From assembly GCA_965656375.1 (NCBI GenBank), contig CBFHKH010000001.1, positions 514,845-578,844 of the forward strand: DNA of 64,000 bases, read 5' to 3'. Under the pieces are notes generated by a model. It was not told where the DNA came from. It made no database searches and saw only the letters and a program-made list of their open reading frames with translations. Position 1 is the first letter of the stretch. Each line of letters opens with the position of its first letter. The position numbers and the translations under genes were made by a program. This document shows, one piece after another, positions 1,639-64,000 of the stretch. The DNA comes from Minisyncoccia bacterium (lineage in GTDB: Bacteria; Patescibacteriota; Minisyncoccia; Phycocordibacterales; UBA9973).

Positions 1639-4219
<2,581 letters not shown>

Positions 4220-4824: not shown

Positions 4825-5433
4825 TTATTCGAGATTTCTTTGTGAAACATTTGTCTGGAGTGCGAATGACGTTGCCTCCCCCTTGATAGTAACAGTGCCT
4901 TTGATGATGATGTATACGCTCGGCTGTACTTTATCCAAAACATCAGAACCAGTAACAAAAAATTTGAGTGACTGTATGTCGATATCAGACGAAACAAGGT
5001 CAAGACAATCCGGATTACATCTTTGGAGTACATGGGTAGAGGCACTCTGGCCATTTGTAGTCGGACGAGTAGCAAGCATGTATGCGGTATCACGAGATCC
5101 TGCCGGATGAAGTGCAGGTGTAAAAATGATCGCACTACCACCTTGGGTGCCAAGCGAACAATCCATATTGGCAGGCGCTGGGAGTGATACGCCTGTAGTA
5201 GACGTAACACATACATAATCTCTTCCCATGCGAAGTGATCTCGTCATGCTTTCCATCGCGAAGTTTACATTGTCCATGGCAGTTCGAAATGCCTGGGACT
5301 TTTTGGCAGTATCGGATGTAGTAATAAGAGCTCCCATAGCCATAAGCATGATGATCATGAATATCGAAGTTGCTACCATGATCTCGATCAAGGTAAAGCC
5401 GGTATTTGTATGTGATCGTTTTGTATGTTTCAT
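4825..5433 (-). CDS. prepilin-type pseudopilin
   Basis: MKHTKRSHTNTGFTLIEIMVATSIFMIIM: a class III signal peptide with Glu at +5. Confidence 0.7.
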   Translation of the reverse strand: MKHTKRSHTNTGFTLIEIMVATSIFMIIMLMAMGALITTSDTAKKSQAFRTAMDNVNFAMESMTRSLRMGRDYVCVTSTTGVSLPAPANMDCSLGTQGGSAIIFTPALHPAGSRDTAYMLATRPTTNGQSASTHVLQRCNPDCLDLVSSDIDIQSLKFFVTGSDVLDKVQPSVYIIIKGTVTIKGEATSFALQTNVSQRNLE

Positions 5434-5434
5434 A

Positions 5435-6127
5435 TTATTTTATACTTATCTGACCAATATTCGATATCGTGATCGTCTTTCGATCTTCGCTCTTTAGATT
5501 CTTTACAATAATATCTACGCTTTTGAGTGGGTCGAGGCATGTCGCACCGCCTATGCCACTTGATGCGCAGATATATGCATCAGGATTCGGACGAAGAAAA
5601 ACAATGTCTACAGAAGTCGCAGTGCAGTTGCCTGGCTCACTATTAGGACAAATGAATTCTATCTCGTCTTCACTGATAATTCGAAGAAGATCTATGCATT
5701 CGTTGCCTGCGCGAAGCGTAGTAGTATCGCAGAGAGACTGCTGGCTCGCCTGATCATAATCATAGAGTTTATTCGGATTACCAAGTGAGTCCGGGATGTC
5801 GTTGAACAAGATAAAGGATTTATTTGAACCAGCGAGCTGATTTGGAGTGGTCTTGTTTGTCGAAAAGTGGATGCCATAGCCGTTTGCAAATGTCGAAAGA
5901 GAACTCCCTACCCCGATCGCCTGGCCTTGAGCTCTTCTGACAGAAAGTGCAATGTCATCGGCGAGATTTTGAAGAGAAACATTTGACCGGAATTTCCCGT
6001 AATCGAATATTGTAAGTCCCGCTACCAAGACAAATATACCGAGCACAACGAGAAGCTCAACGAGGGTCATTCCTCTTTGTAGAGATTGATTACGGGTATA
6101 TTTTTGAGGGCGCAGTTTCTTGTTCAT
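5435..6127 (-). CDS. prepilin-type pseudopilin
   Basis: N-terminus ...LQRGMTLVELLVVLGIFVLVAGL, a prepilin leader followed by a hydrophobic helix. Confidence 0.65.
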   Translation of the reverse strand: MNKKLRPQKYTRNQSLQRGMTLVELLVVLGIFVLVAGLTIFDYGKFRSNVSLQNLADDIALSVRRAQGQAIGVGSSLSTFANGYGIHFSTNKTTPNQLAGSNKSFILFNDIPDSLGNPNKLYDYDQASQQSLCDTTTLRAGNECIDLLRIISEDEIEFICPNSEPGNCTATSVDIVFLRPNPDAYICASSGIGGATCLDPLKSVDIIVKNLKSEDRKTITISNIGQISIK

Positions 6128-45915: not shown

Positions 45916-45962
45916 TTAAAAAAACGTAATGGGTAATTACGTTTTTTTAAATGTCCACCCGC
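45913..45962. terminator. long perfect hairpin (22-bp stem) acting as a bidirectional terminator next to the tRNA 3' end
   Basis: TGGACATTTAAAAAAACGTAAT-gggta-ATTACGTTTTTTTAAATGTCCA. Confidence 0.6.
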
Positions 45963-46027
45963 TTGGATTCGAACCAAGGACCCCAGAGGTATAAGCTCTG
46001 TGCTCTAACCAACTGAGCTACGGGTGG
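45952..46027 (-). tRNA. tRNA-Ile with apparent anticodon UAU
   Basis: CCACCCG-TA-GCTC-AGTTGGTTA-GAGC-A-CAGAG-CTTATAC-CTCTG-GGGTC-CTTGG-TTCGAAT-CCAAG-CGGGTGG-A; positions 34-36 read TAT. Confidence 0.7.
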
Positions 46028-48776: not shown

Positions 48777-49002
48777 GTGTATAAAGTTTTAGTTTTTGAG
48801 TTTAGGTGATCTCTACTCCCCCGATGCGAGGAACACAGATCACCCAACAAGAAAAATTAAAACTATGTGTCAAAGAAGAATTATAGTGAAACACTATAAC
48901 ACCTAGGTATGTTTGTCAAGTTAAGGCACCTGGCCATTTGATTATTTTTAGAATACTTGTATGATGGGATCAAAACAACACTCACCAATAAAATTGAATA
49001 TT

Positions 49003-49608
49003 ATGGAAGAGAATAAAAACTCAACTAATATCGAGAAAGAGTTTAAAAATCTGATCTATGTAAATGAGTATGTAAAGACTCTCTCTTATCTAAAACTAAA
49101 ACCTCTCTTCGGGGTTATGCAATGTAATTCTTTTTTTGATAATGAACAATTAAGCTTACATAAAAAGAACGCGACGTTGCGCATTCGATTCAGTAATGGA
49201 GTTCGTGAACTGACTTTGAAGGAAGATGCTGATGATGGCAGACTGGAGACAAATTATAGTCCGTTATCCGACAAACAATTTGCAGATCTTATAATTGAAG
49301 GGATCATTCCAAAAAGTGATATTTTGACACGACTTCAACACTCAGGAGTAAAGGGTCCATATTGGTATCAAGGTGAGATGATCACCAATCGAATAGAGAT
49401 ATCATACAAAGGATGCAAACTTGCCATCGACCATGCTAAATATTTGGGCACGGAAGATTATGAGATTGAGGTTGAAAAGGATAACGAGAAAGTTAATCAT
49501 AAAAAAGTAGCAAAAAATCTACTTGAAAACCTTGGTATACCTGTACGAAAAGTAAAAGGTAAGAGGAAACGTTTCTTTGAGTTTAAATTACGAACCGAAC
49601 TAGTTTAA
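49003..49608 (+). CDS. CYTH-domain protein (triphosphate tunnel metalloenzyme family)
   Basis: N-terminal NIEKEFK (ExExK signature) and about 200 aa; start placed at MEENKN. Confidence 0.55.
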   Translation: MEENKNSTNIEKEFKNLIYVNEYVKTLSYLKLKPLFGVMQCNSFFDNEQLSLHKKNATLRIRFSNGVRELTLKEDADDGRLETNYSPLSDKQFADLIIEGIIPKSDILTRLQHSGVKGPYWYQGEMITNRIEISYKGCKLAIDHAKYLGTEDYEIEVEKDNEKVNHKKVAKNLLENLGIPVRKVKGKRKRFFEFKLRTELV

Positions 49609-49672: not shown

Positions 49673-50212
49673 GTCACTGATATTTTTCTGCTGAAAAATT
49701 CCGCGACCCCGTCTCGGCTCGTCAGCCTCCGACCGTTCAACTCCTATCCCTACTTACCCCATATACCCAAAAAGCCTGCCATCCGAGGCAGCCTTTTATT
49801 GGTATTGTGGACTACCCCAGATTAAGGTACGAACACAAAAAATCATCAAATTCCTCTCCCTTACAAAAACACAAACCCATTGCTTGGGATGAAATCGAGA
49901 AAGAATTGTTCGTCTTAGAAGAGATTCTAAAATCTGATTCTTCTGAAGATGATCCTTTTACTTCTTCTGTATTTCCTCCATAGGCTTTTCAGGTTTGTTT
50001 TCGAGCTGCCAGAAGAAGGCCTCTACAACAATATCAGCTAAGATGCCTATTTGCTCATCTTCGGTGATATCCGGATTTCGTAGCCTAGCTATCATATCTT
50101 CTAGCTCATATCTTACAACTGTATCCATATCCACCGGTTATACCAGAATTTGCAGCATATGCAAATTCCCCGCCCTTACTAGCTGTATCATTAATTTTTA
50201 TAATTACACTAT

Positions 50213-50453
50213 GAACAAACGAAAAGAGATTGTTCCAAACAATTTGAAAGAGTATCGATTGAAAGCAGGGCTAACACAGAAGGAAGTTGCGAAATTACTT
50301 TGCTTACAATGTGAAGATCGCCTGTCTCATTGGGAAAAAGGACAAGCTGTTCCTTCTATCAAAAATATTATTAAGCTTTGTGGTATCTATCAAACCACTT
50401 TTGAAGAAGTATTTAATGTTCTTAAAAAACAAAATCCAAAACTAAAAATATAA
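50213..50453 (+). CDS. XRE-family HTH regulator
   Basis: MNKRKEIVPNNLKEYRLKAGLTQKEVAKLL...; about 80 aa HTH_XRE. Confidence 0.6.
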
Positions 50454-50754
50454 TCGAAAGGATAATAGGAATAGCCTTTAAACAAAAAATTATTGTAAAA
50501 TATTTTTTAACTCCCGGCTGATTCAAAAAATCTATGCGAAGATTAGCCGGATTGAGAAAAGTTTCTGGAGTAAGAACGCTAAAAACAGATGCATATACGC
50601 CGAATATTGCAGAGAAGGTTGCATATTCCTTATTTAAACGAATGGCTGCAATAATAGTGACTGCTAATGGAATCAATGAGAGAAAGCAAATTTCAAGGAA
50701 CTTAAAAAATCCTTTCTTTGCTTGAGCTTCTGAGAGTGGTGGAGTATATGACAT
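50422..50754 (-). CDS. small membrane protein
   Basis: 110 aa with two or three TM helices; weak call. Confidence 0.3.
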   Translation of the reverse strand: MSYTPPLSEAQAKKGFFKFLEICFLSLIPLAVTIIAAIRLNKEYATFSAIFGVYASVFSVLTPETFLNPANLRIDFLNQPGVKKYFTIIFCLKAIPIILSIIFLVLDFVF

Positions 50755-50763
50755 AAAATATTT

Positions 50764-51594
50764 TTATCTTGATAGCTGAGTAATTGCAGCCTGCAAAACC
50801 TGCCAGCAGATTTTTGCAGTATGTTCATCAGGATTAAAATTCGATGACATTTGTGCATATGGGTGAATGTAATTCCTAAAATCACGCAAGGCATGGCTAA
50901 ACTTCTTCACATCTTCACCAAGTAAATTAATATCCCTAGCAACATTTATAAAATCATTTAAAGCCCAATTTGGAAATTGCTTTACAGTTCCTCCTCTATC
51001 CCTTGGGCTAAGAGAACTTCGATTAAAATTTTGAGGATCCTTCGTTGCTATTCCAAGTAAAATTCCTTCCAATGTACTCCCGCAAAGAAAAATAACGGCT
51101 AAAGATGCTTTAGCATTGAGGCATTTAGCAATCTCATCCATTCTCTGTTCAAGAACACTGGTTATGCTACTGTCCAATCCTAGTTTATGAATAGAAACAT
51201 TCTTAAATTCTTTGCTAATAAAATCCTCTTCTTTCATCTCCGGGGTTTGGGTTTTAATACCAAGCAATTTATTAGCCACTGACCTGCCTGCCACCACTAA
51301 ATCATCGGGGAAATCTGACTTTTTTAAATTGCCTAATAGGATTTGATTTTCAATATACTCAATAAGCTTCGAAATCGATTTTCCAACCAAGGGATCATCA
51401 GCAACTTTCCAAAAGCCCCTGAGTCGATTAGCTTTGGAGCCACTCGCATAATTATATTTGTCATCATAAATATTTATACCAACATCGTCCTGGAAAAACT
51501 CTCCCATTGTTCTATCAGTAAAATTTAAAACATAGCCAGTCATTTGGAAGAGTTTCTCTAATATCTGCTTTTCGTTGGTACCAAGATTTGCCAT
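50764..51594 (-). CDS. hypothetical protein with a possible C-terminal HEPN-type Rx4-6H motif
   Basis: 276 aa; C-terminal ALRDFRNYIHPYAQ; no other recognisable motif. Confidence 0.35.
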   Translation of the reverse strand: MANLGTNEKQILEKLFQMTGYVLNFTDRTMGEFFQDDVGINIYDDKYNYASGSKANRLRGFWKVADDPLVGKSISKLIEYIENQILLGNLKKSDFPDDLVVAGRSVANKLLGIKTQTPEMKEEDFISKEFKNVSIHKLGLDSSITSVLEQRMDEIAKCLNAKASLAVIFLCGSTLEGILLGIATKDPQNFNRSSLSPRDRGGTVKQFPNWALNDFINVARDINLLGEDVKKFSHALRDFRNYIHPYAQMSSNFNPDEHTAKICWQVLQAAITQLSR

Positions 51595-51599
51595 TATGC

Positions 51600-52034
51600 T
51601 TAGTTTAATAAAGAGTCAAAATCAACAATTGCTTTTCTAAATATGTTTTCAATAGCCTTTACCGTCTCCTCATTCACGCTGGCTGGGCTGCTCGCCACCC
51701 ACTTTGCCAAGTTATACAATTCTTGGGGAGATAACGATAACCATTTTTCGTTCTTCCCCAGGAATATAAGAAGAGACATGACAGCCACACGCTTATTCCC
51801 ATTCTGAAACGGATGATTTTTAATCATGAGATAAAACAAGATTGCAGCTTTACTAATCAATCCTTTATACAAATCTCCTTTGTATGTCTGGAACGGTGCC
51901 AGGATGCATTGTTCAAGGGCCCGAGGGTAGCGAGTTGAAAACTCAGGAATTGGCTCTCCCCATTCTAAATATTTTCGAGCAAGTTCATGTGCAGAATATT
52001 CGATTTCTTCCATTGTCAGCCGTTTGGTTTTCAT
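51600..52034 (-). CDS. doc: Doc/Fic family toxin (death-on-curing type)
   Basis: Motif HPFQNGNKR matches the Doc-type Fic motif HxFx(D/N)GNKR; 144 aa. Confidence 0.75.
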   Translation of the reverse strand: MKTKRLTMEEIEYSAHELARKYLEWGEPIPEFSTRYPRALEQCILAPFQTYKGDLYKGLISKAAILFYLMIKNHPFQNGNKRVAVMSLLIFLGKNEKWLSLSPQELYNLAKWVASSPASVNEETVKAIENIFRKAIVDFDSLLN

Positions 52035-52036
52035 AC

Positions 52037-52306
52037 CTATTCTCGGCCAAGCATACGAATTGTTTCTCCGTAGTCTTTAATGGTTTTATCTACTAAGGCT
52101 TTTATTTCCTGTTTATCAATTTCTGTGAGTGGTCGGGTATCAAGATGCTTAATGACTTCCTCATGAGGAATAACATAATTACGACCAATCTTATGTGCCT
52201 TAATTGATCCATCTTTGATCCAGCGAAAAACTGTAACCCGGGTTACATCGAGAATTTTAGCGACTTCAGAAGTTGAAAAATAATTTTGACCATGTAACGA
52301 TTCCAT
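52037..52306 (-). CDS. HTH (excisionase/AlpA-like) DNA-binding protein, probable antitoxin partner of Doc
   Basis: 89 aa; STSEVAKILDVTRVTVFRWIKDG is a MerR/excisionase-type HTH; 3-nt gap to doc. Confidence 0.55.
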   Translation of the reverse strand: MESLHGQNYFSTSEVAKILDVTRVTVFRWIKDGSIKAHKIGRNYVIPHEEVIKHLDTRPLTEIDKQEIKALVDKTIKDYGETIRMLGRE

Positions 52307-52418
52307 AGGCCTATGGTAACATATGTTACATAACTATGCAAGAGTTGTTACATTTCCTATTTATTAGGATGCTATGAAATAAGCCTTTTTTAGAAATATA
52401 ACTTGTTATTTCTAACAA

Positions 52419-52816
52419 TGTGGAACTGGGCGGAGTTGAACCGCCATGCAAAAGATGTTCATAGATGAATCTACATGTGTATCATGTTCGATTGGGTTTA
52501 AATATGAAAGCTAGAGAACACGCAATATACTTTCACACCGAGCTTTTCATTGTCGAGATCTCTCGCAAGCGGTGAGAGATCCGTAACCCGATAAATTATG
52601 CCTCTCCTCTGTATCGGATGTCGAGAAGAGAGACACCTGACTGGCTTAAATTAAGCGAGTGCAGGAGCGAAGTTGAAACCAAATGCGTTAGCAAATGGTG
52701 ACTTCACCATAGCGACTTTGTTTGCACGTAGTCTTTTGGAAGTAGTTTAGCGAGATACCTCCGCACTCGACACGCACATCTATGAGGACGAACCTTTGTC
52801 GAAGCCCGTCAGTCCC
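52419..52816 (-). ncRNA. ssrA: tmRNA (SsrA)
   Basis: 5' GGGACUGACGGGCUUCGAC... pairs with 3' ...GGCGGUUCAACUCCGCCCAGUUCCACA (tRNA-like T-arm and acceptor). The internal frame GCU AAC GCA UUU GGU UUC AAC UUC GCU CCU GCA CUC GCU UAA gives a tag near ANAFGFNFAPALA. Adjacent to smpB. Confidence 0.8.
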
Positions 52817-52837: not shown

Positions 52838-53281
52838 TTACCGTTTATATTCTCTTCGGATCTCCCGATCCGTATCACGTTTCTTTATGGTCTCTCGTTT
52901 GTCGTAATTTTTCTTTCCTTTTACAACTGCGAGTTCTACCTTAATGAGGCGCCCCTTACTATACAATGAGAGTGGGACCAAGGTCAAACCCTTTTTCTTG
53001 TCCTCATCTGCCAAGCGTTGTATTTGTTTCTTTGAAAGAAGAAGCTTCCTCGTACGAGTTGGATCATAGTCTGTAGGGGTATTACCAACTTGATAGGGCG
53101 GAATCTGCATGTTCATAAGGAACACTTCCCCACCACGAACAATTGCGAACGCACCTAGAAGTATAGCCCGCCCACCCTTGATAGACTTTACTTCAAATCC
53201 AAAAAGCTCAATACCTGCCTCGTATTTTTCAATCACTTCAAAATTAAAGTGAGCTTTTCTATTGTCAATCAATACGGTCAT
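52838..53281 (-). CDS. smpB: SsrA-binding protein
   Basis: 147 aa, ...KAHFNFEVIEKYEAGIELFGFEVKSIKGG..., with a basic C-terminal tail. Confidence 0.9.
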   Translation of the reverse strand: MTVLIDNRKAHFNFEVIEKYEAGIELFGFEVKSIKGGRAILLGAFAIVRGGEVFLMNMQIPPYQVGNTPTDYDPTRTRKLLLSKKQIQRLADEDKKKGLTLVPLSLYSKGRLIKVELAVVKGKKNYDKRETIKKRDTDREIRREYKR

Positions 53282-56124: not shown

Positions 56125-56155
56125 AAATCCCTTCAATTGAAGGGATTTTTTATTG
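56125..56155. terminator. bidirectional terminator
   Basis: AAATCCCTTCAATTGAAGGGATTT with flanking T/A runs. Confidence 0.65.
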
Positions 56156-59068
56156 GGCTGGTTCGTCAGATGCCGGACTCTCCACCGGTGGAACAGCGGT
56201 TCCTTCTGAGCCTCCATCAGCTTCTGGAGCGATTTGATCTTCTACACACGTACTTCCATCGAGATGATAGCCAGATGGAACCGCTGCCTGATCGCCATCG
56301 ATGTTTGGACACATATCTGTAGCTTGTGGGGTGTCTCCACCTCCGCCGTTTCTCGTATTTGTATTATTGCTGAGCATCTGTAGAAGTTCTGCTTTTGTTA
56401 CACAAACATCCTCAAGACAAAGTTTCTTTGTATGCACTTCGCCAAAGAATACAATTTCTATACCATTGCCTATATCTGCTAGGAATTCTTTAATGAGAGA
56501 ACCAAGTGAGGCTTCGTTTGTAGTATCAAGTGATGAGAGTCCTTCGATCCTAATATTCATCTCCCTCACCGCACCCACCACATATGGCATGAGACCACTC
56601 ATGTTTAAGAACTTGCGGGTGGTGCCATCGATCCAGGTATGATCTGTAACGAGGTCTGGGAATTGAGTAGCGACTTCTTGAGCGATGAATCCGTACTGGA
56701 GTGGTGCGGATGTGCCTTCAGTGAGCCAGTGGTATGAGACGGGGTTGAGGGATGAGATCTTGGAAAGGAGATCTGATGTTGAGAGTGAGGTAACATCTTT
56801 CTTGAGGGTGAGGTCTGAACCGCAGGTTGGGGCTCCAGTGTTTGCATTGAAGTCACAGACTGAGTTTGTGTCTTGTAATCTCATGAGTGTGGTGCCGTCA
56901 GTGATGGATGAGGAGCCTACGTGGAGGAGGAAGCCGGGGGTTTGCTGGTTGATGCCGACGTTACCGTTTAACATGATGTTTTGTGAAGCAACTGAGGCGT
57001 TCTGCTGGATGTAGATTGGGGAGGCTGTTTGGTCGCCGGTGTAATCTGCTCGATCGAGTGAGTTAATGAATATTTGGTTTGAAGCGGTTGTAGTATACCT
57101 ACCTGCTACTGCACCAATTGCTACATTTGCAGTACCTGTTGTATTGTTAATTAAACTTCTATCTCCAATTGCCGTATTAGCATGAGCCTCGTTGTTGTAA
57201 AGAGTGTTTCGTCCAACTCCTACATTCTCAGATCCAGAAACATTGAATCTTAATGATTCTGCTCCGATGGCTATATTTGCTGTACCGTCAATATTAGCAA
57301 GGAGGGCACTCCGTCCAAATGCAGCATTAGCTTGACCTACTGTATTAGCTTTTAGAGCACCAGTACCAAATGCTGCATTATTAATAGATCCATTTACAAG
57401 CAATGCTTCATAACCGAAACTAGTACTATTTGTTGTTAGATCAATATAACCACTTTTCAAATTATTAGCTTTAAACATCAACCCCACATTATTAGTAGTA
57501 CCGATAAAATTAGTTCCTGGTGTTGTCCCTGCATTACCTGTTAAGGCCCATCCAGTTGGAAGCGTTATCCATGTTGGAGGAAGTCCTGCCCCTCCGCTTG
57601 TGAGAATTTGCCCTGCTGTACCAGGCAGATTATTCGGCATGAGTGCACCAGAGAAATTAATGTTGCCTGTGACATTGAGCTTTTGTCCGCCTGCAGTTGC
57701 ACTTCCGATGGTAACGTTACCTCGAACAGTATGCGAAGGGCTTAATCCCAAGAATATTTCTCCATCCCCACCTGCACCGTTACCAAGACCCGAGACGATA
57801 TATATGTTACCTCCCGCAGCTCCTCCGGTACTACCTGCATTACCTGCTTTTAGAGCAGCATAACCAGCAGAACCGCCTGATGTACCTCCGCCACCATTTC
57901 CCCCTTGAATTTCGACATATCCTCCAACCCCACCAAATGTAGTTCCCAAACCGCCATCTCCACCGAGAATAGTAATGCGTCCTCCGGCTCCGCCGATTCC
58001 TGTTGTTGGTGATCCTGTTATATTACCGCCATTCCCTGCGAGAATATCTATTGCGCCTGCATTGCCTCCGCTAACAGTCCCGGTATTATATGATGTTGCG
58101 CCGCCTGCACCACCTTGTATTTTGAGGGGCGAGCTAGCAGTAGTACCGTCTGAACCTGATACTGCACTTTGAGCAGCTTGGAATACATGGAGTAGGGCTG
58201 TCGGACTTGTTGTTCCGATACCAACATTGCCACCAATTCCAGGCACAAGTGCTATATGCGTCGATGCACCAGAGGTGATTGAACCGACGTTCGGAGTGTT
58301 CGCGAAATAGATACCGTAATTATTCGTCGCTGCAGTAAGACCATTTATATACAGGCCATACTGATCTGTAACACTACTACCACCAGATACGGAAACATCG
58401 CGCAGATCAATGTGTTTTAAAATCGTTGTGATTGCACCACCGGTCACCGAAGGACCTGTCTGATACTCGACCTGGTTTGCTACTGTGCCTGATGCTGCTC
58501 CGTGATTACTTTGAGTCGCCAGACTGACAATACTGCTCGGGAGATTAGTGATTCCAGATAATGTAACTGCAATATTCTGGCCAAGGATCGCTCCACCAGC
58601 ACCCGCGCCGCTTCCCGCAGTCAATCCTATTTTTGATCCGTATAAAACGCCACCGTTCATACTGCTTACAGTGGCCGCTATATTTGAAACAGTACTTCCG
58701 TTGCTTGTGATGGTTCCGGCGATGTCTAGTTTAGAGCTAGGGTTTGTCACTCCTATCCCTACATTGCCTGTATTGTAGTAAATATCCGAGCCATTTGTGA
58801 TCCACTGGCTACTACCTGAAAGAGCTACCCAGCTCGTCACACTTCCGTCTGTCATGAGGAACTTGCCAGTATTACCTGTTTGATCAGGAAGAATCTGAAC
58901 GAAACAATTCGTATCTCCAGGCGCACAGGAAGGATCAAGAGTCTCTCCTGCCTGATAGGGAGAGCCTGGTGGTGTAGCAAAAACAGAAATATATGCACCA
59001 AAAAGGAGTACGAAGAGAAACCCAGTCAAAAGTTTTGGATAGCGAAATGTAGATTTCTTCATATACAT
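56150..59068 (-). CDS. secreted glycine-rich tail-fibre-like protein with C-terminal intramolecular-chaperone (peptidase S74-type) domain
   Basis: Signal peptide; about 600 aa of Gly/Ala/Asn/Thr-rich repeats (GGAGGATSYNTGTVSGGNAG..., NAAFG/NIAIG/NVGVG repeats). C-terminal ...DLTLKKDVTSLSTSDLLSKISSLNPVSYHW...YGFIAQEV... resembles tail-spike autoproteolytic chaperone domains. Confidence 0.7.
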   Translation of the reverse strand: MYMKKSTFRYPKLLTGFLFVLLFGAYISVFATPPGSPYQAGETLDPSCAPGDTNCFVQILPDQTGNTGKFLMTDGSVTSWVALSGSSQWITNGSDIYYNTGNVGIGVTNPSSKLDIAGTITSNGSTVSNIAATVSSMNGGVLYGSKIGLTAGSGAGAGGAILGQNIAVTLSGITNLPSSIVSLATQSNHGAASGTVANQVEYQTGPSVTGGAITTILKHIDLRDVSVSGGSSVTDQYGLYINGLTAATNNYGIYFANTPNVGSITSGASTHIALVPGIGGNVGIGTTSPTALLHVFQAAQSAVSGSDGTTASSPLKIQGGAGGATSYNTGTVSGGNAGAIDILAGNGGNITGSPTTGIGGAGGRITILGGDGGLGTTFGGVGGYVEIQGGNGGGGTSGGSAGYAALKAGNAGSTGGAAGGNIYIVSGLGNGAGGDGEIFLGLSPSHTVRGNVTIGSATAGGQKLNVTGNINFSGALMPNNLPGTAGQILTSGGAGLPPTWITLPTGWALTGNAGTTPGTNFIGTTNNVGLMFKANNLKSGYIDLTTNSTSFGYEALLVNGSINNAAFGTGALKANTVGQANAAFGRSALLANIDGTANIAIGAESLRFNVSGSENVGVGRNTLYNNEAHANTAIGDRSLINNTTGTANVAIGAVAGRYTTTASNQIFINSLDRADYTGDQTASPIYIQQNASVASQNIMLNGNVGINQQTPGFLLHVGSSSITDGTTLMRLQDTNSVCDFNANTGAPTCGSDLTLKKDVTSLSTSDLLSKISSLNPVSYHWLTEGTSAPLQYGFIAQEVATQFPDLVTDHTWIDGTTRKFLNMSGLMPYVVGAVREMNIRIEGLSSLDTTNEASLGSLIKEFLADIGNGIEIVFFGEVHTKKLCLEDVCVTKAELLQMLSNNTNTRNGGGGDTPQATDMCPNIDGDQAAVPSGYHLDGSTCVEDQIAPEADGGSEGTAVPPVESPASDEPAQ

Positions 59069-59092: not shown

Positions 59093-60463
59093 TTAGCATT
59101 CAAGCATAACTGATTCTCCGGCATCAGGAGAATGCACCTTGATGCCAAGATTGTCATGCAATTTCTGAGCAAGGAAAAGTGATGATTTTGGCTCTCCCAT
59201 GACCACAAAAGCTTTCTTGAGATTTTTTGCCATATGACTTACGAATTCTACCAAGTGATCAGAGTCTTTATGTCCGGAGTAACCGCTGATCATCTCTATA
59301 CGTGCACGAACTTTTACATCTTCACCTTGGATGTGTACAGTTTTCGCTCCATCTTCGATCAAGCGCCCAAGGGTACCGGCTGACTGATACCCAGTAAGAA
59401 GGATTGTATTGTTTGGATCAGGTAAATAATTCTTCTCGTGATGTATGATACGTCCACCATTCGACATCCCAGATCCAGCCATGATGATTTTCGGGTTCGA
59501 TGCTTTGAGTATCGCTTTTGATTCTTCGGTATCTGCTGTCTCCTGTAGTCCAGGAAATTCAAAGATAGGATCTCCTCCATCAATGATCTTCCGCGCAGTA
59601 GCATTAAAATATTTTCCATATTTAAGATAGATATCAGTAAGCTTAATCGCAAGTGGCGAATCGAGGAACATTGTCATCTCTGGAATCTCTTTTGCATGGA
59701 GTAGTGTGTCTATCTCGTAGAGAAGCTCTTGGGTACGCTCCAGTGAAAAAGTAGGAACGATAAGGGTGCCCTTTCTCTTGTAATTATCATTGATGACTTG
59801 TGCAAGTTTGTCTTTGCGAATTTTGCGGTCTTCATGATTGCGGTCACCATATACAGACTCCATGATGAGATAGTCTGCATCAGTAATGATTTCTGTATCG
59901 CGAAGAAGCGGTGAAGGAGAATTACCGAGATCACCGGTAAAAACGATCTTCTTGCCGTTGTACATCACCTCGAGCATTCCGGAACCCAAGATGTGGCCTG
60001 CGTCTTTATAGGAAAATTGGAATCCGTGATCGATATTGAGCTTCTGTCCGTACTCGAGGGTTTCCCACATATCCATCGCGCGCTTTATATTCTCCCCCGT
60101 ATAGATCTCACCCAAATTATTCTTTTTATCGTGTGAAAGCAAATGTGCAGTATCCTCGAGCATAACCGCGGTGATATCTTTTGTTGGGATAGTTGAGTAG
60201 ATCTTACCTCGAAAGCCCTCGCTTATAAGCTTCGGAATACGTCCAATGTGATCGATATGACCGTGTGTTATAAAAAGAATGTCTATTTCACTTACTGGGT
60301 ATGAGAATTTTTCCCAGTTTATCTCGTCAGCAAGGCTTTCCCCTTGTACGAGCCCGCAGTCGATAAGGAATTTCTTACCATTGCCTTCGAGGAGGAAGTT
60401 CGCGCCTGTTACCGTGCCTGCTCCCGAGCAGAAAGTGACTTTCAGTGTATGATCAGTTTGCAT
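59093..60463 (-). CDS. RNase J-like metallo-beta-lactamase/beta-CASP ribonuclease
   Basis: HxHxDH motif FITHGHIDHIG with further MBL and beta-CASP motifs; start placed at MQTDHTLKV. Confidence 0.75.
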   Translation of the reverse strand: MQTDHTLKVTFCSGAGTVTGANFLLEGNGKKFLIDCGLVQGESLADEINWEKFSYPVSEIDILFITHGHIDHIGRIPKLISEGFRGKIYSTIPTKDITAVMLEDTAHLLSHDKKNNLGEIYTGENIKRAMDMWETLEYGQKLNIDHGFQFSYKDAGHILGSGMLEVMYNGKKIVFTGDLGNSPSPLLRDTEIITDADYLIMESVYGDRNHEDRKIRKDKLAQVINDNYKRKGTLIVPTFSLERTQELLYEIDTLLHAKEIPEMTMFLDSPLAIKLTDIYLKYGKYFNATARKIIDGGDPIFEFPGLQETADTEESKAILKASNPKIIMAGSGMSNGGRIIHHEKNYLPDPNNTILLTGYQSAGTLGRLIEDGAKTVHIQGEDVKVRARIEMISGYSGHKDSDHLVEFVSHMAKNLKKAFVVMGEPKSSLFLAQKLHDNLGIKVHSPDAGESVMLEC

Positions 60464-60763
60464 ATAGGCTTTATTATACATGAATATAATAAAAAATCCT
60501 TCTATTTTCATAGAAGAATTGCTTATTAGGACTATTCAAGAGATATTACCATAGCGGAACGCTACGTGGGACCAAGGATACTACAGATTTGTTCACATTA
60601 ATAACGTTACAGCACGGTAGTAAAACTCTTTGTCCCCTATAAAATGTGTTCTAGGTAATACGTCTCAAATAACCCTACCTTGAGTATACTCGTGTGAGCG
60701 AAGTCTGCAAGTAAATTTACAAAACAGCACACTTTTGACAAGAGTTCAAATCAAGTCTAGAGA

Positions 60764-61420
60764 TTAGATTTCAAAATTTTTCAATTCTTCGATTATTTTC
60801 GCTACAGATTCATCAGTAATATCTTCAGGTTTGATGTTTGATTGCAAGAAAATCTGTTTTTCAATTTCGAAAATATTTTTTGCATAAAAATTCTTCTTTT
60901 CTTCATCAAAAGCCCTTCCTGTATCTTTGTATCGCTTATAAGCTTCTATGTTTCTCTCTTCAATAGACACGATTCCATGCGGAGTGACTCGATCATCAGC
61001 ATATATACTGATTTTTCTACCAAAATTATCACCTGTAACTATACTTTCTATATAAGTAGCATCTACATGTTTTGCAAGATCAAGCACAATAGAAGATGTT
61101 CTAAGTTCTTTAATAATAGCGATAGTTGCTTCATGCTCTTTTTCTCCATATTTTGTAAAATATTCTTGTTGAATATCCTGCCAATATTCTAATCCTTGTG
61201 GCTCTAGAAATCCGGGAAAGTTCTGTTTAGTATATGACAGATTGAACTTTATAATATTACCCATATCATGCATCAAGCATGCAGTCACTACAGATTTCGT
61301 ATCAATATCTTGATCTAGAGACTCGCAAACCTGTCTCGCTACAGCTGCAACTCGCAACTGATGCAACTGTAGCTGTGGCATTATTTTATATTCTTCATAT
61401 ATATCTGTAATTTTCCGCAT
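60764..61420 (-). CDS. HD-domain phosphohydrolase
   Basis: H...HD motif: HQLRVAAVAR ... LMHDMGN. Confidence 0.65.
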   Translation of the reverse strand: MRKITDIYEEYKIMPQLQLHQLRVAAVARQVCESLDQDIDTKSVVTACLMHDMGNIIKFNLSYTKQNFPGFLEPQGLEYWQDIQQEYFTKYGEKEHEATIAIIKELRTSSIVLDLAKHVDATYIESIVTGDNFGRKISIYADDRVTPHGIVSIEERNIEAYKRYKDTGRAFDEEKKNFYAKNIFEIEKQIFLQSNIKPEDITDESVAKIIEELKNFEI

Positions 61421-61425
61421 GAATT

Positions 61426-61965
61426 TTAAAATCTCATATTATTCCAATCAAGACCATAACGCTCGCGGATGAGTTTTGTCTCTCCTTGTGAAAGTGCTTC
61501 ATGATTTTCTAATTCAAGAAGTTTAATAGCGTGACCAACATGCTCTTCACTATTCCCTTCAATCTCTAAATACGCAGGCATTCCAGGATACTGATCAAGA
61601 TCGAAATTCCAGCTCTCAAATGAGAAAGAGATTCTATCTTTTTCTTGATGGGCATAGTGTACAAATCCCACTGCTTCAAGAAGAGATTTTGCATTTTCAA
61701 AATCAGAAACATCTATATTTATTTCTTGAGATTGGCGGGTATTACCAACAATCGTTTCTAGTGATTTCCAACTAATTTCGGCCTTACCATCAGATGTTTT
61801 TCGAACTCTTAAATACCATGGATGAGTAGTGTCGAGCGCATTCTTTGGGCAATACCAGTCGACAAAGAGACGTACGTCTTGAGTCTGATTTGCTCCTAAA
61901 TTTTTTAGTTTTTCTAAAACTTTTCCAGTATTAATTTCCAGAATTTTCGTTTCTATTTCGTGCAT
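61426..61965 (-). CDS. CYTH-domain protein
   Basis: N-terminal MHEIETKIL (ExExK); about 180 aa. Confidence 0.55.
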   Translation of the reverse strand: MHEIETKILEINTGKVLEKLKNLGANQTQDVRLFVDWYCPKNALDTTHPWYLRVRKTSDGKAEISWKSLETIVGNTRQSQEINIDVSDFENAKSLLEAVGFVHYAHQEKDRISFSFESWNFDLDQYPGMPAYLEIEGNSEEHVGHAIKLLELENHEALSQGETKLIRERYGLDWNNMRF

Positions 61966-61968
61966 AAA

Positions 61969-62520
61969 TTATTTCATTCCATACTTTTCAAAAAGCATGA
62001 TGTCGTATTTACCATCAATTACCCGATCTTCTTCTTGGATACCAAACTCTTCCAGAAATTTAAAAAGCTCTTCCTGAACTTTCATTCGCTCTTCAGGTTT
62101 TGTAAGATCAATAATTTTTTCAGCTTCAATAAAATCTCCGAGATTTTCTACAGTATCTAATACGATTTCTACACCCTGATACATTGTTTTGATTCTTTTC
62201 TTATCTACGGTGGGAACTTGCTTATATCCTAAAAAGTGAAAAACTTCCAACATCTTATCTCCATCAGAAATCTCAAACTCACGTTCTATACAATCTTGTC
62301 TACTTGATTGTGGAATCTTTAAAGTGAAAAAACTCGTACCGTTTTCCTTTCGTACTCGCAAAACTGGCACACCCAATGCGGGTGGAAAAATTGAATCTCC
62401 AGGTATAAAAATATAGTCTACTTGGTGCAATTCTTCAGAAAAAATGCACCCCTTTGATTTAAGCAAATCTTGCACTACTTTTTTATCCTTAAGTCTAGCT
62501 TTTACTTCAACTTCATACAT
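61969..62520 (-). CDS. CYTH-domain protein
   Basis: N-terminal MYEVEVKARL (ExExK); about 180 aa. Confidence 0.55.
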   Translation of the reverse strand: MYEVEVKARLKDKKVVQDLLKSKGCIFSEELHQVDYIFIPGDSIFPPALGVPVLRVRKENGTSFFTLKIPQSSRQDCIEREFEISDGDKMLEVFHFLGYKQVPTVDKKRIKTMYQGVEIVLDTVENLGDFIEAEKIIDLTKPEERMKVQEELFKFLEEFGIQEEDRVIDGKYDIMLFEKYGMK

Positions 62521-62568
62521 ACTGCTTACTATAACATAAAATCCCCTTTCGGGGATTTTATTAATTAT

Positions 62569-63153
62569 CTATTCATCAACACCGAAACGCTTGTAATCCA
62601 TGAGCTTGATATCGCCGAACCAGTGCTTGATCTCGTGTTCTGCTTCCTCTGGAGTTTCTGAACAATGAACGATATTCATAACTGCGCGCTTTTCCATGTT
62701 TGCAAGTGCTGGAGAATCAATAGAGAAATCTCCACGAATTGTGCCCATCTCAGCTTTGTATGGCATTGTATCGCCAGCAACCTTACGAACAACGTCCACA
62801 GCATGCACACCTTTAACTACCATTTTCACAAGAGGTGCAGATGTCATGTAATCGATGAGCCATTTACGGATCTCAGGACCGATCTTTGCAGCTTCAGTTG
62901 TACCGAAGTCTTTCATAGCATCATAGCCGTATTTTTCGTATGTCGTGAGAGTTTTGTTACCAAGGCGAGTGATCCATTCTTCGCTCTTTGGATAGTGATC
63001 ATTAACTCGATCGAATTCTGGAGTAAACATCTCAAGCGCGACGATCTTCAGATCGCGCTGTTCAAAACGCTTGATAACTTCACCTATGAGGCCTTTTTTG
63101 ACTCCATCCGGCTTCATCATAACATATGTAACTTCTTCTTTTGGGTGTTTCAT
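62569..63153 (-). CDS. ndk: nucleoside diphosphate kinase with an approx 50-aa internal insertion
   Basis: VMMKPDGVKKGLIGEVIKRFE..., active-site NIVHCSE; 194 aa versus the usual 140 or so. Confidence 0.8.
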   Translation of the reverse strand: MKHPKEEVTYVMMKPDGVKKGLIGEVIKRFEQRDLKIVALEMFTPEFDRVNDHYPKSEEWITRLGNKTLTTYEKYGYDAMKDFGTTEAAKIGPEIRKWLIDYMTSAPLVKMVVKGVHAVDVVRKVAGDTMPYKAEMGTIRGDFSIDSPALANMEKRAVMNIVHCSETPEEAEHEIKHWFGDIKLMDYKRFGVDE

Positions 63154-63223
63154 ATAAATAAAAAATCGCTTTCGCGGTTTGTAGTAATAAAGCTATTATA
63201 GCAGAAAATCCCTTGTTCGGCAA

Positions 63224-63835
63224 TTATTTCTTAATCTGCTCGGTAAATGTAATAACTGAATACTCATTCTCATTTATATTATTCATTTTATAAATCTGCA
63301 TTGTAGAACAGCGTAAATGAGTGCTCCAATCAAAGCCGAGCTTTTTTGCAACTGCTTCAACATTCTCCCAACTATTCCCTTCAAGCTCTACATACGGATC
63401 AATCATCGGCCATGTATCTATATCTACTTCAACTGTATCGAGAATATAACGTTCTCGTTTATTTTCTTCGTAGAACTTCTCTATCATACCTATTGATTTG
63501 AGGAATTGATCTGCAGTAGTAAAATCACTGACAACTATCTCGACTTCTTTCATCCCTCCATCACGCATCGTCTCACTATTTGCTTCGAGTCGTTGTTTAT
63601 ATGTCATGACAACCTTGTCTCCTTCATCACGCACTCGCACCCACGCATGCTTCTCTGCAAGTGGTAAACCCGGGAAATCATACGATTTTCTTTTATAATC
63701 AAAGCTACCGATAAAAACCGCTTCAAGTGCTTTGAGTTTGTCTCTTAGCTTCTCTACATCTATATGTATAAACTTTGCTTCTATCTCTTCCATATTATCC
63801 TTGCTGTCTGTATTTATCCATAATTTCTTCTTCAA
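63224..63835 (-). CDS. CYTH-domain protein
   Basis: MEEIEAKFI (ExExK) near the N-terminus; about 200 aa. Confidence 0.5.
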   Translation of the reverse strand: MKKKLWINTDSKDNMEEIEAKFIHIDVEKLRDKLKALEAVFIGSFDYKRKSYDFPGLPLAEKHAWVRVRDEGDKVVMTYKQRLEANSETMRDGGMKEVEIVVSDFTTADQFLKSIGMIEKFYEENKRERYILDTVEVDIDTWPMIDPYVELEGNSWENVEAVAKKLGFDWSTHLRCSTMQIYKMNNINENEYSVITFTEQIKK

Positions 63836-64000
63836 CTTCTCCGCGTTCGCGACCGAATTTCAAGTATGAGAGTTCTTTGATCTTCTCGACGATCTCGACT
63901 GTTCCTTGTGGCGGTGGGAATGTTGCAATATTGAACGGCTTTGTCGGCTGGCCACCAACGAGCATCGACATATATGCATTCCTATTCTCAATCTTCATAA

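Follow-up and report, generated by a model that had tools for sequence, protein, structure and literature searches.

A neighbourhood of predicted triphosphatases and phosphohydrolases around ndk in a Minisyncoccia genome

Four CYTH-domain proteins are encoded in the 64,000-nucleotide stretch of Minisyncoccia DNA analysed here (the window). On balance, the interval around three of their genes is best read as a neighbourhood for phosphorylation and dephosphorylation of the nucleotide pool, furnished with optional phosphohydrolase cassettes; it would probably be neither a fixed multi-enzyme machine nor a cAMP-producing unit. The proteins, termed CYTH-A to CYTH-D, are most likely triphosphatases and not makers of cAMP, as predicted from their sequences. 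CYTH proteins are ancient and widespread, with few physiological roles established, and automatic annotation still labels the majority of prokaryotic members as adenylate cyclases. The cluster is made of known enzyme families, and its conservation is too low to define a new system. Its CYTH genes are optional add-ons missing from most relatives, a modest variation on known enzymes. Two of the CYTH proteins beside ndk (A and C) carry the residue that gives a mammalian enzyme its specificity for thiamine triphosphate, and are concrete candidates for bacterial organic-triphosphate specificity. The locus also provides a clear case of a 'class IV adenylate cyclase' annotation that is probably wrong, and the presence/absence series across Nomurabacteria can be used to correlate CYTH content with other traits.

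The genes for CYTH-C (63224..63793, 189 aa), Ndk (62569..63153, 194 aa), CYTH-B (61969..62520, 183 aa), CYTH-A (61426..61965, 179 aa) and an HD-superfamily phosphohydrolase (60764..61420, 218 aa) follow one another in this order on the minus strand. The gaps measure 70, 48, 3 and 5 bp, so that the co-localization with Ndk and HD remarked on in a preliminary description of the window is indeed a tight same-strand string. The most likely start of CYTH-C is ATG 63793 (MEEIEAK), in agreement with the public gene call and 20 of 20 orthologues. The preliminary description had placed the gene at 63224–63835; that ORF is present and could reach TTG 63835, but ATG 63793 is the more likely start. This codon lies 1 bp past the stop of the upstream gene for a 909-aa DUF8128/DUF87/TraG-like ATPase (public gene call and Pfam), whose 3' end occupies 63795..64000 on the minus strand and which runs past the window edge. 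The conserved backbone reads SecY, Adk, AA_kinase, further genes, Map, the 909-aa ATPase, slot 1 and Ndk, then slot 2, a small RNA, (a small membrane protein), a beta-CASP RNase and L20/L35/IF3. The ATPase gene is also upstream of ndk in loci L082, L083, L085 and L086. Here CYTH-C occupies slot 1, and slot 2 is filled by CYTH-B, CYTH-A and HD; all are co-directional and nearly abutting. The Adk and AA_kinase genes upstream make this a nucleotide-kinase neighbourhood. Spacing suggests co-transcription of the cluster with ndk. Against this, a promoter-like site (TTGCCG-17-TATAAT with TG; 63195..63223, minus strand) lies between C and ndk, a 10/12 consensus match only, and such sites in the region do not exceed the count expected from shuffled sequence. 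The host genome, of Candidatus Nomurabacteria/Paceibacteria (CPR) affiliation, measures about 0.84 Mb (identical proteins are encoded on a contig of 840 kb) and has four CYTH genes, three of them beside ndk. CPR genomes generally must salvage nucleotides, and the cassettes would act in an organism that probably shares this need.

Ndk itself is a recognizable kinase (Pfam NDK, 118.7 bits). Its catalytic histidine is kept (H163 in NIVHCS, aligned to NLVHAS of PDB 1xqi). The preliminary description had noted a single insertion of about 50 aa. The extra sequence is there, but it forms two insertions relative to a 139-aa Ndk, one of about 40 aa (residues 59–98) and one of about 10 aa (147–156). It is no local peculiarity: residues 7–184 align to the Pyrobaculum aerophilum NDK (1xqi) at 173 bits, without gaps over 178 residues and with both insertions included, although the host here is bacterial (CPR). 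Among 4666 homologues the top 120 share at least 79% identity and are nearly all 194 aa long, and the long form is conserved in thousands of relatives. Other Paceibacteria carry in the same slot an Ndk of 170–173 aa that is 38% identical and has a first insertion 27 aa shorter.

The HD protein exceeds the Pfam HD cutoff (26.5 against 22 bits) and has both hallmarks of the superfamily, the H...HD...D metal-binding residues and an all-alpha HD fold. Invariant positions are H20, H51-D52, N55, K58, H96 and D142. It falls under every subfamily threshold applied, including those for YfbR/HDDC2/oxetanocin-like 5'-nucleotidases (HD_3), HD-GYP/HDOD and YqeK-like proteins. Against HD_3 (PF12917) the window protein scores 19.5 bits (threshold 22.5), while 13 of 13 family members match this profile (best E 2e-5) and four match YfbR-like proteins (best E 0.002). 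It differs from known HD hydrolases in having Asn, not Glu, three residues past HD, and in a C-terminal 70-residue region that is unmatched. Its model (pLDDT 95) gave no significant PDB match by Foldseek. The lineage is found only in CPR. A cyclic-di-GMP phosphodiesterase of the HD-GYP type was considered and rejected, as no GYP motif follows the HD region. In all five HD homologues that were looked up directly the HD gene is immediately downstream of a kinase gene, and at one of these loci an ADK-domain kinase replaces Ndk.

How firmly these genes belong together was judged from 61 related Nomurabacteria/Paceibacteria genomes that span the interval. CYTH genes are absent from the interval in 30 of them, and both CYTH and HD in 27; three genomes have three CYTH genes, and the full set occurs at one locus only (L002). 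The order C-ndk-B-A-HD never varies, even though presence is patchy. Thus, of the dedicated module for nucleotide or polyphosphate processing or signalling first proposed, the nucleotide-kinase setting holds and an obligate, dedicated unit is not supported; likewise, the gene order is fixed, but co-occurrence is inconsistent. Half of the relatives have no CYTH gene here, so a functional link with Ndk need not exist. The same slots carry HAD, HIT and NUDIX hydrolases in relatives, as well as selfish genes (an IS200-like Y1 transposase, DUF559 and a 23S rRNA IVP). Divergence of A and C does not follow that of the backbone, taken as beta-CASP identity (Spearman rho -0.19 and 0.26), and with histories so uncoupled, mobile accessory genes fit at least as well as metabolic partnership. 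Patchy occupancy, selfish neighbours and these discordant histories are what would be expected if the ndk flanks were simply a permissive insertion slot, in which small genes for CYTH, HD, HAD, HIT and NUDIX proteins accumulate independently and serve unrelated housekeeping. We regard this explanation as unlikely, yet it is the strongest competitor. It sits poorly with contents strongly biased to nucleotide and phosphoester hydrolases, with the invariant order, with the divergence of B and HD, which does follow the backbone (rho about 0.6), and with the recurrence of HD after a kinase gene, even where that kinase is of the ADK type. In the preferred nucleotide-pool reading the CYTH genes would be optional cassettes, and the succession of kinase gene and HD the recurrent element.

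The CYTH assignments are secure for all four proteins. Against PF01928 (179 profile positions; gathering score 23.2 bits) A scores 34.4, B 65.3, C 54.2 and D 62.6 bits, each covering about 160–175 positions. These scores and coverage indicate that the N-terminal ExExK signatures (EIETK, EVEVK, EIEAK and EKEFK) are not chance matches and that each ORF is a complete domain and no fragment of a frameshifted gene, which disposes of the two objections raised against the initial CYTH identification. All four ORFs are full length and keep the complete tunnel set (ExExK, RxR, K, K/R-x-R, D and ExE). Within orthologues of A, B and C the E, E and K of ExExK are invariant, with one exception (K in 20/21 C members). 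RxR, the next-strand Lys, K/R-x-R and the last-strand ExE are invariant or nearly so in these sets, and present in D. They map onto R56/R58, K69, K110/R112 and E135/E137 of SaTTM (Saci_0718 of Sulfolobus acidocaldarius). SaTTM and Pyrococcus 1yem/2een/2dc4, the best sequence and fold relatives of A, B and C, belong to CYTH cluster 3 (Vogt et al. 2021). Shared features are single-domain size, ExExK, RxR, K, K-x-R, F/Y-x-E-x-E and a plug-helix Tyr; identity is only 13–24%, and the hosts here are CPR bacteria, not archaea. Each protein would be a divalent-cation-dependent triphosphate tunnel metalloenzyme (TTM). Metals would be held by both Glu residues of ExExK and both of ExE, the triphosphate clamped by RxR, K and K/R-x-R, and the terminal phosphate hydrolysed, not cyclised. 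B, of the SaTTM type, and D, of the Bacillus YjbK type, resemble generic triphosphatases that act on PPPi or NTP.

The label of paralogues, and with it the 'striking expansion' by duplication that had been suggested, proved misleading. A and C are 30% identical (BLASTP, E 7e-17), A and B give no BLASTP match, and B and C match only at E 0.02. By sequence, the genes represent three or four old lineages: A and C are sisters, B is SaTTM-like and D is YjbK-like.

CYTH-A and CYTH-C stand apart in one tunnel position. CYTH-A has ExExK, D36-W-Y38, W50-Y51-L-R53-V-R55, K67, K109/R111, D124, E134-I-E136 and Y170, and its key residues are invariant in 72 homologues. Its AlphaFold2 model (pLDDT 93.5) is an eight-strand barrel, for which Foldseek returns closed, substrate-bound SaTTM as best match (TM 0.78–0.80; about 0.55 for ThTPase). 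The barrel is modelled for A, and B, C and D were judged on sequence. CYTH-C, whose best solved relative is also SaTTM, has E3, E5 and K7 (ExExK), W51-x-R53-x-R55, K66, R113, D126 and E136-x-E138. In HMMER alignment Y51 of A and the W of C fall on A54 of SaTTM, a residue equated with W53 of mouse ThTPase (PMC8233210), and residues 3–57 of the C-family profile align to 7–59 of the human enzyme. C also differs from SaTTM in having no clear DxY motif. The mammalian enzyme owes its specificity to W53, which stacks on the thiazole ring (PMC8233210; 2021 review). The position is W in 20/21 C orthologues and Y or F in 15/15 A orthologues, whereas B (V/I) and D (T) have no aromatic residue there. The 150 nearest relatives of C include 143 full-length representatives, and 123 of these are aromatic at the position. 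Matches to C at E <= 1e-10 come from 716 or more clusters at 50% identity. The A/C clade is metagenome-only, and all taxon labels seen are CPR.

The motif W/Y-x-R-x-R, with ExExK and ExE intact, likens A and C to THTPA (3bhd, 3tvl, 5a64), but overall similarity is weak. The C profile matches its N-terminal 55 residues only (E 0.008, against 5.6e-12 for SaTTM), and the A profile has no THTPA match at E <= 10; TM and E values place A and C much closer to SaTTM than to THTPA. Reports of ThTPase activity in CYTH proteins are confined to metazoans, and the CYTH activities given for bacteria include no ThTP hydrolase (2021 review). In A and C the aromatic residue, Y/F or W, precedes RxR by two positions and would occupy the place that stacks the organic moiety in thiamine triphosphatase. 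Both probably prefer an organic triphosphate, e.g. a nucleoside triphosphate or thiamine triphosphate. The prediction draws on a single position in the motif, together with a classification that was worked out on the ten largest CYTH clusters and may not hold here. The residue may be convergent with ThTPase and stack on a nucleobase instead. We raise, quite tentatively and as a bolder and rather improbable proposal, that the clade independently gained a ThTPase-type aromatic gate (W/F/Y-x-R-x-R) and contains the first prokaryotic TTMs specific for organic triphosphates (ThTP or particular (d)NTP), encoded in cassettes that are traded at the ndk locus and by which nucleotide-scavenging episymbionts adjust their triphosphate pool.

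Downstream of HD lies a structured non-coding RNA (60483..60680, minus strand; core 60524–60680, terminator about 60483–60519). This conserved element of 130–160 nt belongs to the backbone and stands outside the CYTH story; it matched no Rfam family, and has its own upstream promoter-like site and an intrinsic terminator. Next is the gene for a beta-CASP metallo-beta-lactamase ribonuclease (59093..60463, minus strand; Pfam Beta-Casp, Lactamase_B and RMMBL), which probably starts at M17 (60463), since a longer ORF to 60511 would overlap the RNA terminator. The protein is aCPSF1-like without KH domains (NCBIfam aCPSF1, 301 bits, below cutoff), and its gene is the conserved downstream anchor of the slot in nearly all loci. 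One C-like relative carries a fused ASCH domain, a domain linked to RNA or nucleoside binding. This fusion and the invariant ribonuclease neighbour invite the idea that a CYTH protein strips the gamma phosphate from 5'-triphosphate RNA in the manner of Cet1-type TTMs and so primes the beta-CASP RNase; the TTM superfamily does include RNA triphosphatases (PMC8233210; 2021 review). Such a role in 5'-end processing appears improbable. The RNA gene with its terminator parts the beta-CASP gene from the cluster, the ribonuclease gene has its own promoter-like site and is present with or without CYTH genes, and PF02940 (Cet1-like mRNA triphosphatase, separate from PF01928 in Pfam) was not matched at E <= 0.1.

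Hypervariable content framed by conserved anchors, the disagreement of the A and C phylogenies with the backbone, and adjoining mobile-element genes in relatives would also suit a conflict system, with cassettes acting as nucleotide-depleting effectors against phage or host, or as counter-defence enzymes. We consider this very unlikely: no CYTH protein has a PADLOC or PHROG match, a single 18.7-bit dGTPase match is confined to the HD motif, no sensor or effector partners are present, and the GC content of the cluster is ordinary for the window.

The nucleotide-pool reading also has to meet the annotation of these families as cyclases. CYTH-B (ExExK, V53-L-R55-V-R57, K68, K107/R109, D122, E132-A-E134 and Y172) matches the archaeal SaTTM/Pyrococcus-like TTMs in the PDB (1yem, 2een, 2dc4, 7ns8). 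All four proteins have superfamily and size in common with CyaB and YpAC-IV (2fjt, 3n0y), and B exceeds the cutoff of NCBIfam TIGR00318 (76.5 bits against 57.95), with A (45.5) and C (41.1) below it and no match for D. This model also takes in archaeal TTMs that have been shown to lack cyclase activity (PMC8233210). Three determinants of class IV adenylate cyclases (AC-IV) have been published: HFxxxxExExK, an extension for adenine stacking, a small residue for the first Arg of xRxR, and ExA for ExE (PMC8233210). All three fail in A to D, so that on these criteria the assignment does not apply. A and B begin two residues before ExExK in ORFs that cannot extend, the N-termini of C and D have no HF motif even when extended as far as possible, and neither RxR nor ExE has lost its Arg or Glu residues in any of the four proteins or of the families. 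SaTTM, which uses two metals to hydrolyse PPPi/ATP, forms no cyclic nucleotides (PMC8233210). Signalling was one of the functions suggested in the preliminary description. For a module in which at least one CYTH protein is a cyclase (class IV adenylate or another nucleotidyl type), HD the phosphodiesterase and Ndk the supplier of NTP, the TIGR00318 score of B and the public label 'adenylate cyclase class 2' for relatives can be cited; with the determinants missing, a closest solved relative that makes no cyclic nucleotides, no GYP motif in HD and no cNMP-binding effector gene within the cluster, it is highly improbable.

CYTH-D (49003..49608, plus strand; 201 aa from M15 of an ORF beginning at 48961) sits 12 kb from the ndk cluster, beside FtsH and a small tmRNA-adjacent islet. 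That a fourth CYTH gene lies here was correctly seen, and its proximity to the ssrA island less so: about 2.8 kb and genes for HTH, DUF4145 and Fic/DOC proteins separate it from the tmRNA gene (52418–52816). It is unlinked to ndk, and 80 related loci have no D-type gene near ndk. The protein (E-K-E-F-K, T-L-R-I-R and E-I-E-V-E) aligns end to end with the Bacillus YjbK-type TTMs of cluster 5 (BH2851, 2gfg; GBAA_1210, 3sy3), over residues 21–209 at E 9e-19 (2gfg) and 7e-19 (3sy3). Another cluster 5 protein, from Staphylococcus aureus, has been reported as unable to form cAMP.

The final 3.3 kb of the window holds five tightly packed minus-strand ORFs. These encode CYTH-C (63224–63793, extendable to a TTG at 63835), Ndk (62569–63153), CYTH-B (61969–62520), CYTH-A (61426–61965) and an HD protein (60764–61420). 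The intergenic gaps along C-ndk-B-A-HD are 70, 48, 3 and 5 bp, and a beta-CASP ribonuclease gene lies downstream. A fourth CYTH gene, CYTH-D, is found about 12 kb away on the plus strand (48961/49003–49608). Proteins 100% identical to CYTH-A and the HD protein are encoded on an 840-kb contig. A public contig carries an identical copy of the region and reveals what lies upstream: SecY is followed by Adk, an AA_kinase-family protein, two unknowns and methionine aminopeptidase. Next comes a 909-aa ATPase (DUF8128/DUF87/TraG-like), the gene for which ends 1 bp before the CYTH-C ATG; CYTH-C is called there as 189 aa. The best-supported picture is a neighbourhood of conserved nucleotide-kinase genes (Adk, AA_kinase, Ndk) that includes a recurring kinase–HD pair and, as optional cassettes, genes for phosphohydrolases; the complement of cassettes in this genome is unusually full. 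The preliminary description proposed a dedicated nucleotide or polyphosphate processing or signalling module. Its observation of a real CYTH cluster with ndk and HD stands; its interpretation is borne out only in part.

All four CYTH ORFs exceed the Pfam CYTH gathering score of 23.2 (34–65 bits) across almost the entire profile, and HD and NDK likewise score above their Pfam thresholds. Each CYTH ORF has its own ExExK, RxR, Lys, K/R-x-R, Asp and ExE, and tunnel residues are invariant or nearly so in the orthologue sets of CYTH-A (n = 15), CYTH-B (n = 17) and CYTH-C (n = 21). An AlphaFold2 model of CYTH-A forms a full barrel (pLDDT 93.5), for which the top PDB matches are closed, ligand-bound states of the Sulfolobus acidocaldarius triphosphate tunnel metalloenzyme, SaTTM (TM 0.78–0.80). 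Because the profile matches are significant and every ORF is a complete domain, the CYTH genes are genuine and the ExExK signatures are not chance matches. Frameshift fragments of a single gene are excluded, since each ORF spans the full CYTH profile and CYTH-A folds as a complete barrel. Recent tandem duplication is excluded by pairwise comparison: CYTH-A and CYTH-C are 30% identical, A and B give no BLASTP match, and B and C match at E 0.02. CYTH-D groups with the Bacillus YjbK/BH2851 proteins (E ~1e-19 to 3sy3 and 2gfg). The four genes are therefore not recent paralogues. The CYTH, Ndk and HD enzymes are members of known families.

The extra sequence attributed to Ndk is real, but instead of a single block of about 50 aa it forms two segments, residues ~59–98 and ~147–156, when set against an Ndk of 139 aa. 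Alignment of the entire protein to Pyrobaculum aerophilum NDK (PDB 1xqi, 173 bits) needs no gaps, and the catalytic His is kept. Relatives conserve the insertion: the best 120 of 4666 homologues of this 194-aa form are at least 79% identical. The Ndk homologues assign the source to Candidatus Nomurabacteria/Paceibacteria. A second form, of 170–173 aa, occupies the same syntenic position in Paceibacteria; it is 38% identical and its first insertion is 27 aa shorter. In one genome, a 360-aa ADK-domain protein replaces Ndk, preceded by a CYTH gene and also flanked by an HD gene. The genes for these shorter Ndk and ADK-domain proteins lie at 5436–5948, 5394–5909, 3433–3954 and 2863–3945 of related loci L082, L083, L086 and L084, respectively.

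Conservation of the arrangement was surveyed in 80 species-representative loci carrying the 194-aa form of Ndk, with ORFs labelled by comparison with the window proteins. Occupancy of the two slots flanking ndk (from the ATPase gene to ndk, and from ndk to the small RNA and beta-CASP gene) was counted in the 61 loci spanning the interval. The order C-ndk-B-A-HD-beta-CASP is never violated in the loci examined, and presence is patchy. No CYTH gene occurs in 30 of the 61 loci, one in 19, two in nine and three in three. The HD gene is present in 10/61 and none of the four genes in 27/61; the full set of C, B, A and HD is confined to a single locus, L002. The C-ndk-B-A-HD arrangement is a lineage-specific, non-obligate variation. 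In all five independent look-ups of HD homologues, the HD gene came immediately after a nucleotide-kinase gene, with beta-CASP further downstream. The slots of relatives (L006–L076) also carry HAD, HIT, NUDIX and cytidylyltransferase-like genes, as well as selfish genes (IS200-like Y1 transposase, DUF559, 23S-rRNA IVP). In 49 loci, the gene for a multi-pass membrane protein of 124–179 aa, with no Pfam match, directly precedes beta-CASP; the window lacks it. For each cassette gene, a Spearman coefficient relates its pairwise divergence to that of beta-CASP, a protein of the backbone. Judged by these coefficients, CYTH-B (rho 0.60) and HD (0.59) look mostly vertical in descent, whereas the values for CYTH-A (−0.19) and CYTH-C (0.26) suggest exchange, or sorting among deep allelic lineages.

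Conservation of the 252-bp spacer that separates HD from beta-CASP far exceeds that of the proteins on either side. Within it are a promoter-like site (CTTGCA-17-TATACT), a structured RNA body of ~157 nt and an intrinsic terminator, into which the start of the long beta-CASP ORF extends. The RNA element lies at 60483–60680 on the minus strand of the window, and between ndk and beta-CASP in loci L002–L083. A covariance model recovers it, in the same orientation, from 70 of 83 sequences (the window and 82 loci); these include almost all loci that reach from ndk to beta-CASP, even distant ones. There are two size forms, 157 nt and 132 nt, most relatives having the form of ~132 nt. The apical helix has clear compensatory changes; one pair, for example, is UA in 25, CG in 25 and AU in nine. 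A long closing stem leads into a bubble whose 5' strand has 13 nt and faces a small 3' hairpin, then come G-C pairs and a terminal stem; the predicted layout is similar to that of 6S RNA. The spacer has no match to a family of Rfam 15, whether at gathering score or with the limit relaxed to E ≤ 10. The longest beta-CASP ORF begins at 60511 (minus strand), within the terminator hairpin, and TGTATAAT, an extended −10, follows the terminator in the region 60463–60511 (minus strand). Together, these features suggest that the true start is probably M17 at 60463. The beta-CASP protein is 456–461 aa long in relatives, against 472 aa for the longest ORF in the window. That the CYTH enzymes might be RNA 5'-end triphosphatases feeding the beta-CASP RNase downstream is less likely, as the gene for the latter is predicted from sequence to be an independent transcription unit.

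Three sequence features mark genuine class IV cyclases (Vogt et al. 2021, PMC8233210): the motif HFxxxxExExK, replacement of the first Arg in xRxR by a small residue, and ExA rather than ExE. By the same scheme, thiamine triphosphatases (ThTPases) have W/Y-x-R-x-R, and CYTH members that are neither are triphosphatases. CYTH-B scores above the cutoff of TIGR00318, 'class IV adenylate cyclase'. Its nearest solved relatives form the Pyrococcus/Sulfolobus cluster, the characterized member of which forms no cyclic nucleotide (PMC8233210). None of the four CYTH proteins has the HF motif or space for one, and all keep both Arg of RxR and both Glu of ExE. Adenylate cyclase identity is rejected on these three sequence criteria, which leaves a cAMP signalling module, and with it the signalling role first suggested, less likely. 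Because cyclase motifs are absent and the nearest solved relatives of CYTH-B include a non-cyclase, all four proteins are read as hydrolases. SaTTM hydrolyses a terminal phosphate via two-metal catalysis (PMC8233210). By analogy, each CYTH protein would hold a triphosphate in its tunnel and cleave the terminal phosphate in the same way. CYTH-B and CYTH-D are predicted to be likely generalists for PPPi/NTP, and for CYTH-A and CYTH-C the probable substrate is an organic triphosphate. A defence island or phage origin is likewise less likely, as the CYTH proteins have no PADLOC or PHROGs match and GC content is ordinary. Among the papers of the literature library searched, none relevantly links CYTH with Patescibacteria, or tunnel metalloenzymes or CYTH enzymes with Ndk.

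CYTH-A and CYTH-C carry an aromatic residue two positions ahead of RxR (W50-Y51-L-R-V-R and A-W-V-R-V-R). By HMMER it aligns to SaTTM A54, which has been equated with W53 of mouse ThTPase (PMC8233210), and residues 3–57 of the CYTH-C family profile align to human ThTPase 7–59. The position is Y/F in 15/15 CYTH-A orthologues, Y in 114 of 120 CYTH-A database homologues and W in 20/21 CYTH-C orthologues. Among the 150 nearest CYTH-C relatives, 143 representatives are full length, and 123 of these have an aromatic residue there. Since CYTH-A and CYTH-C are overall far nearer to SaTTM than to ThTPase, the residue is a lead on substrate, pointing to an organic triphosphate, and not proof of ThTPase membership. 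The wider CYTH-C clade (716 representative clusters at E ≤ 1e-10) is nearly all metagenomic, and the sole taxon labels seen are CPR. Of 20 C-like clusters queried, 18 have no source name, one is Candidatus Dojkabacteria and one is labelled just 'adenylate cyclase class 2'. This aromatic-gate clade is the most interesting part of the finding and is open to direct enzymology. In some relatives (P0452, P0410, P0447, P0370, P0383), the C-like domain shares a protein with DUF1835+DUF3658, ASCH or DUF1653, partners that give no clear functional lead.

Several other features accompany these genes. Between CYTH-D and the tmRNA gene (52418–52816; SmpB follows at 52838–53281) lies a small islet, 49700–52420. 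It encodes an XRE-type HTH (within 49995–50453), a weakly matched DUF4145 protein (50764–51594) and a Fic/DOC protein (51600–52034) that matches PADLOC candidate-defence models PDC-S23 (E 9e-16). A 972-aa Gly/Thr/Asn-rich protein (56150–59068, minus strand) is encoded between beta-CASP and IF3/TruB, where loci L082, L083 and L085 have L20/L35 directly after beta-CASP. It ends in a Peptidase_S74 (endosialidase chaperone) domain and has tail-fibre/tail-spike matches in PHROG. The GC content of this gene is 0.45–0.48, against ~0.38 in neighbouring sequence. In most bacteria AUA is read by a lysidine-modified CAU tRNA, and a UAU tRNA-Ile is uncommon; ARAGORN identifies a tRNA-Ile with anticodon TAT (UAU) at 45953–46027 on the minus strand.
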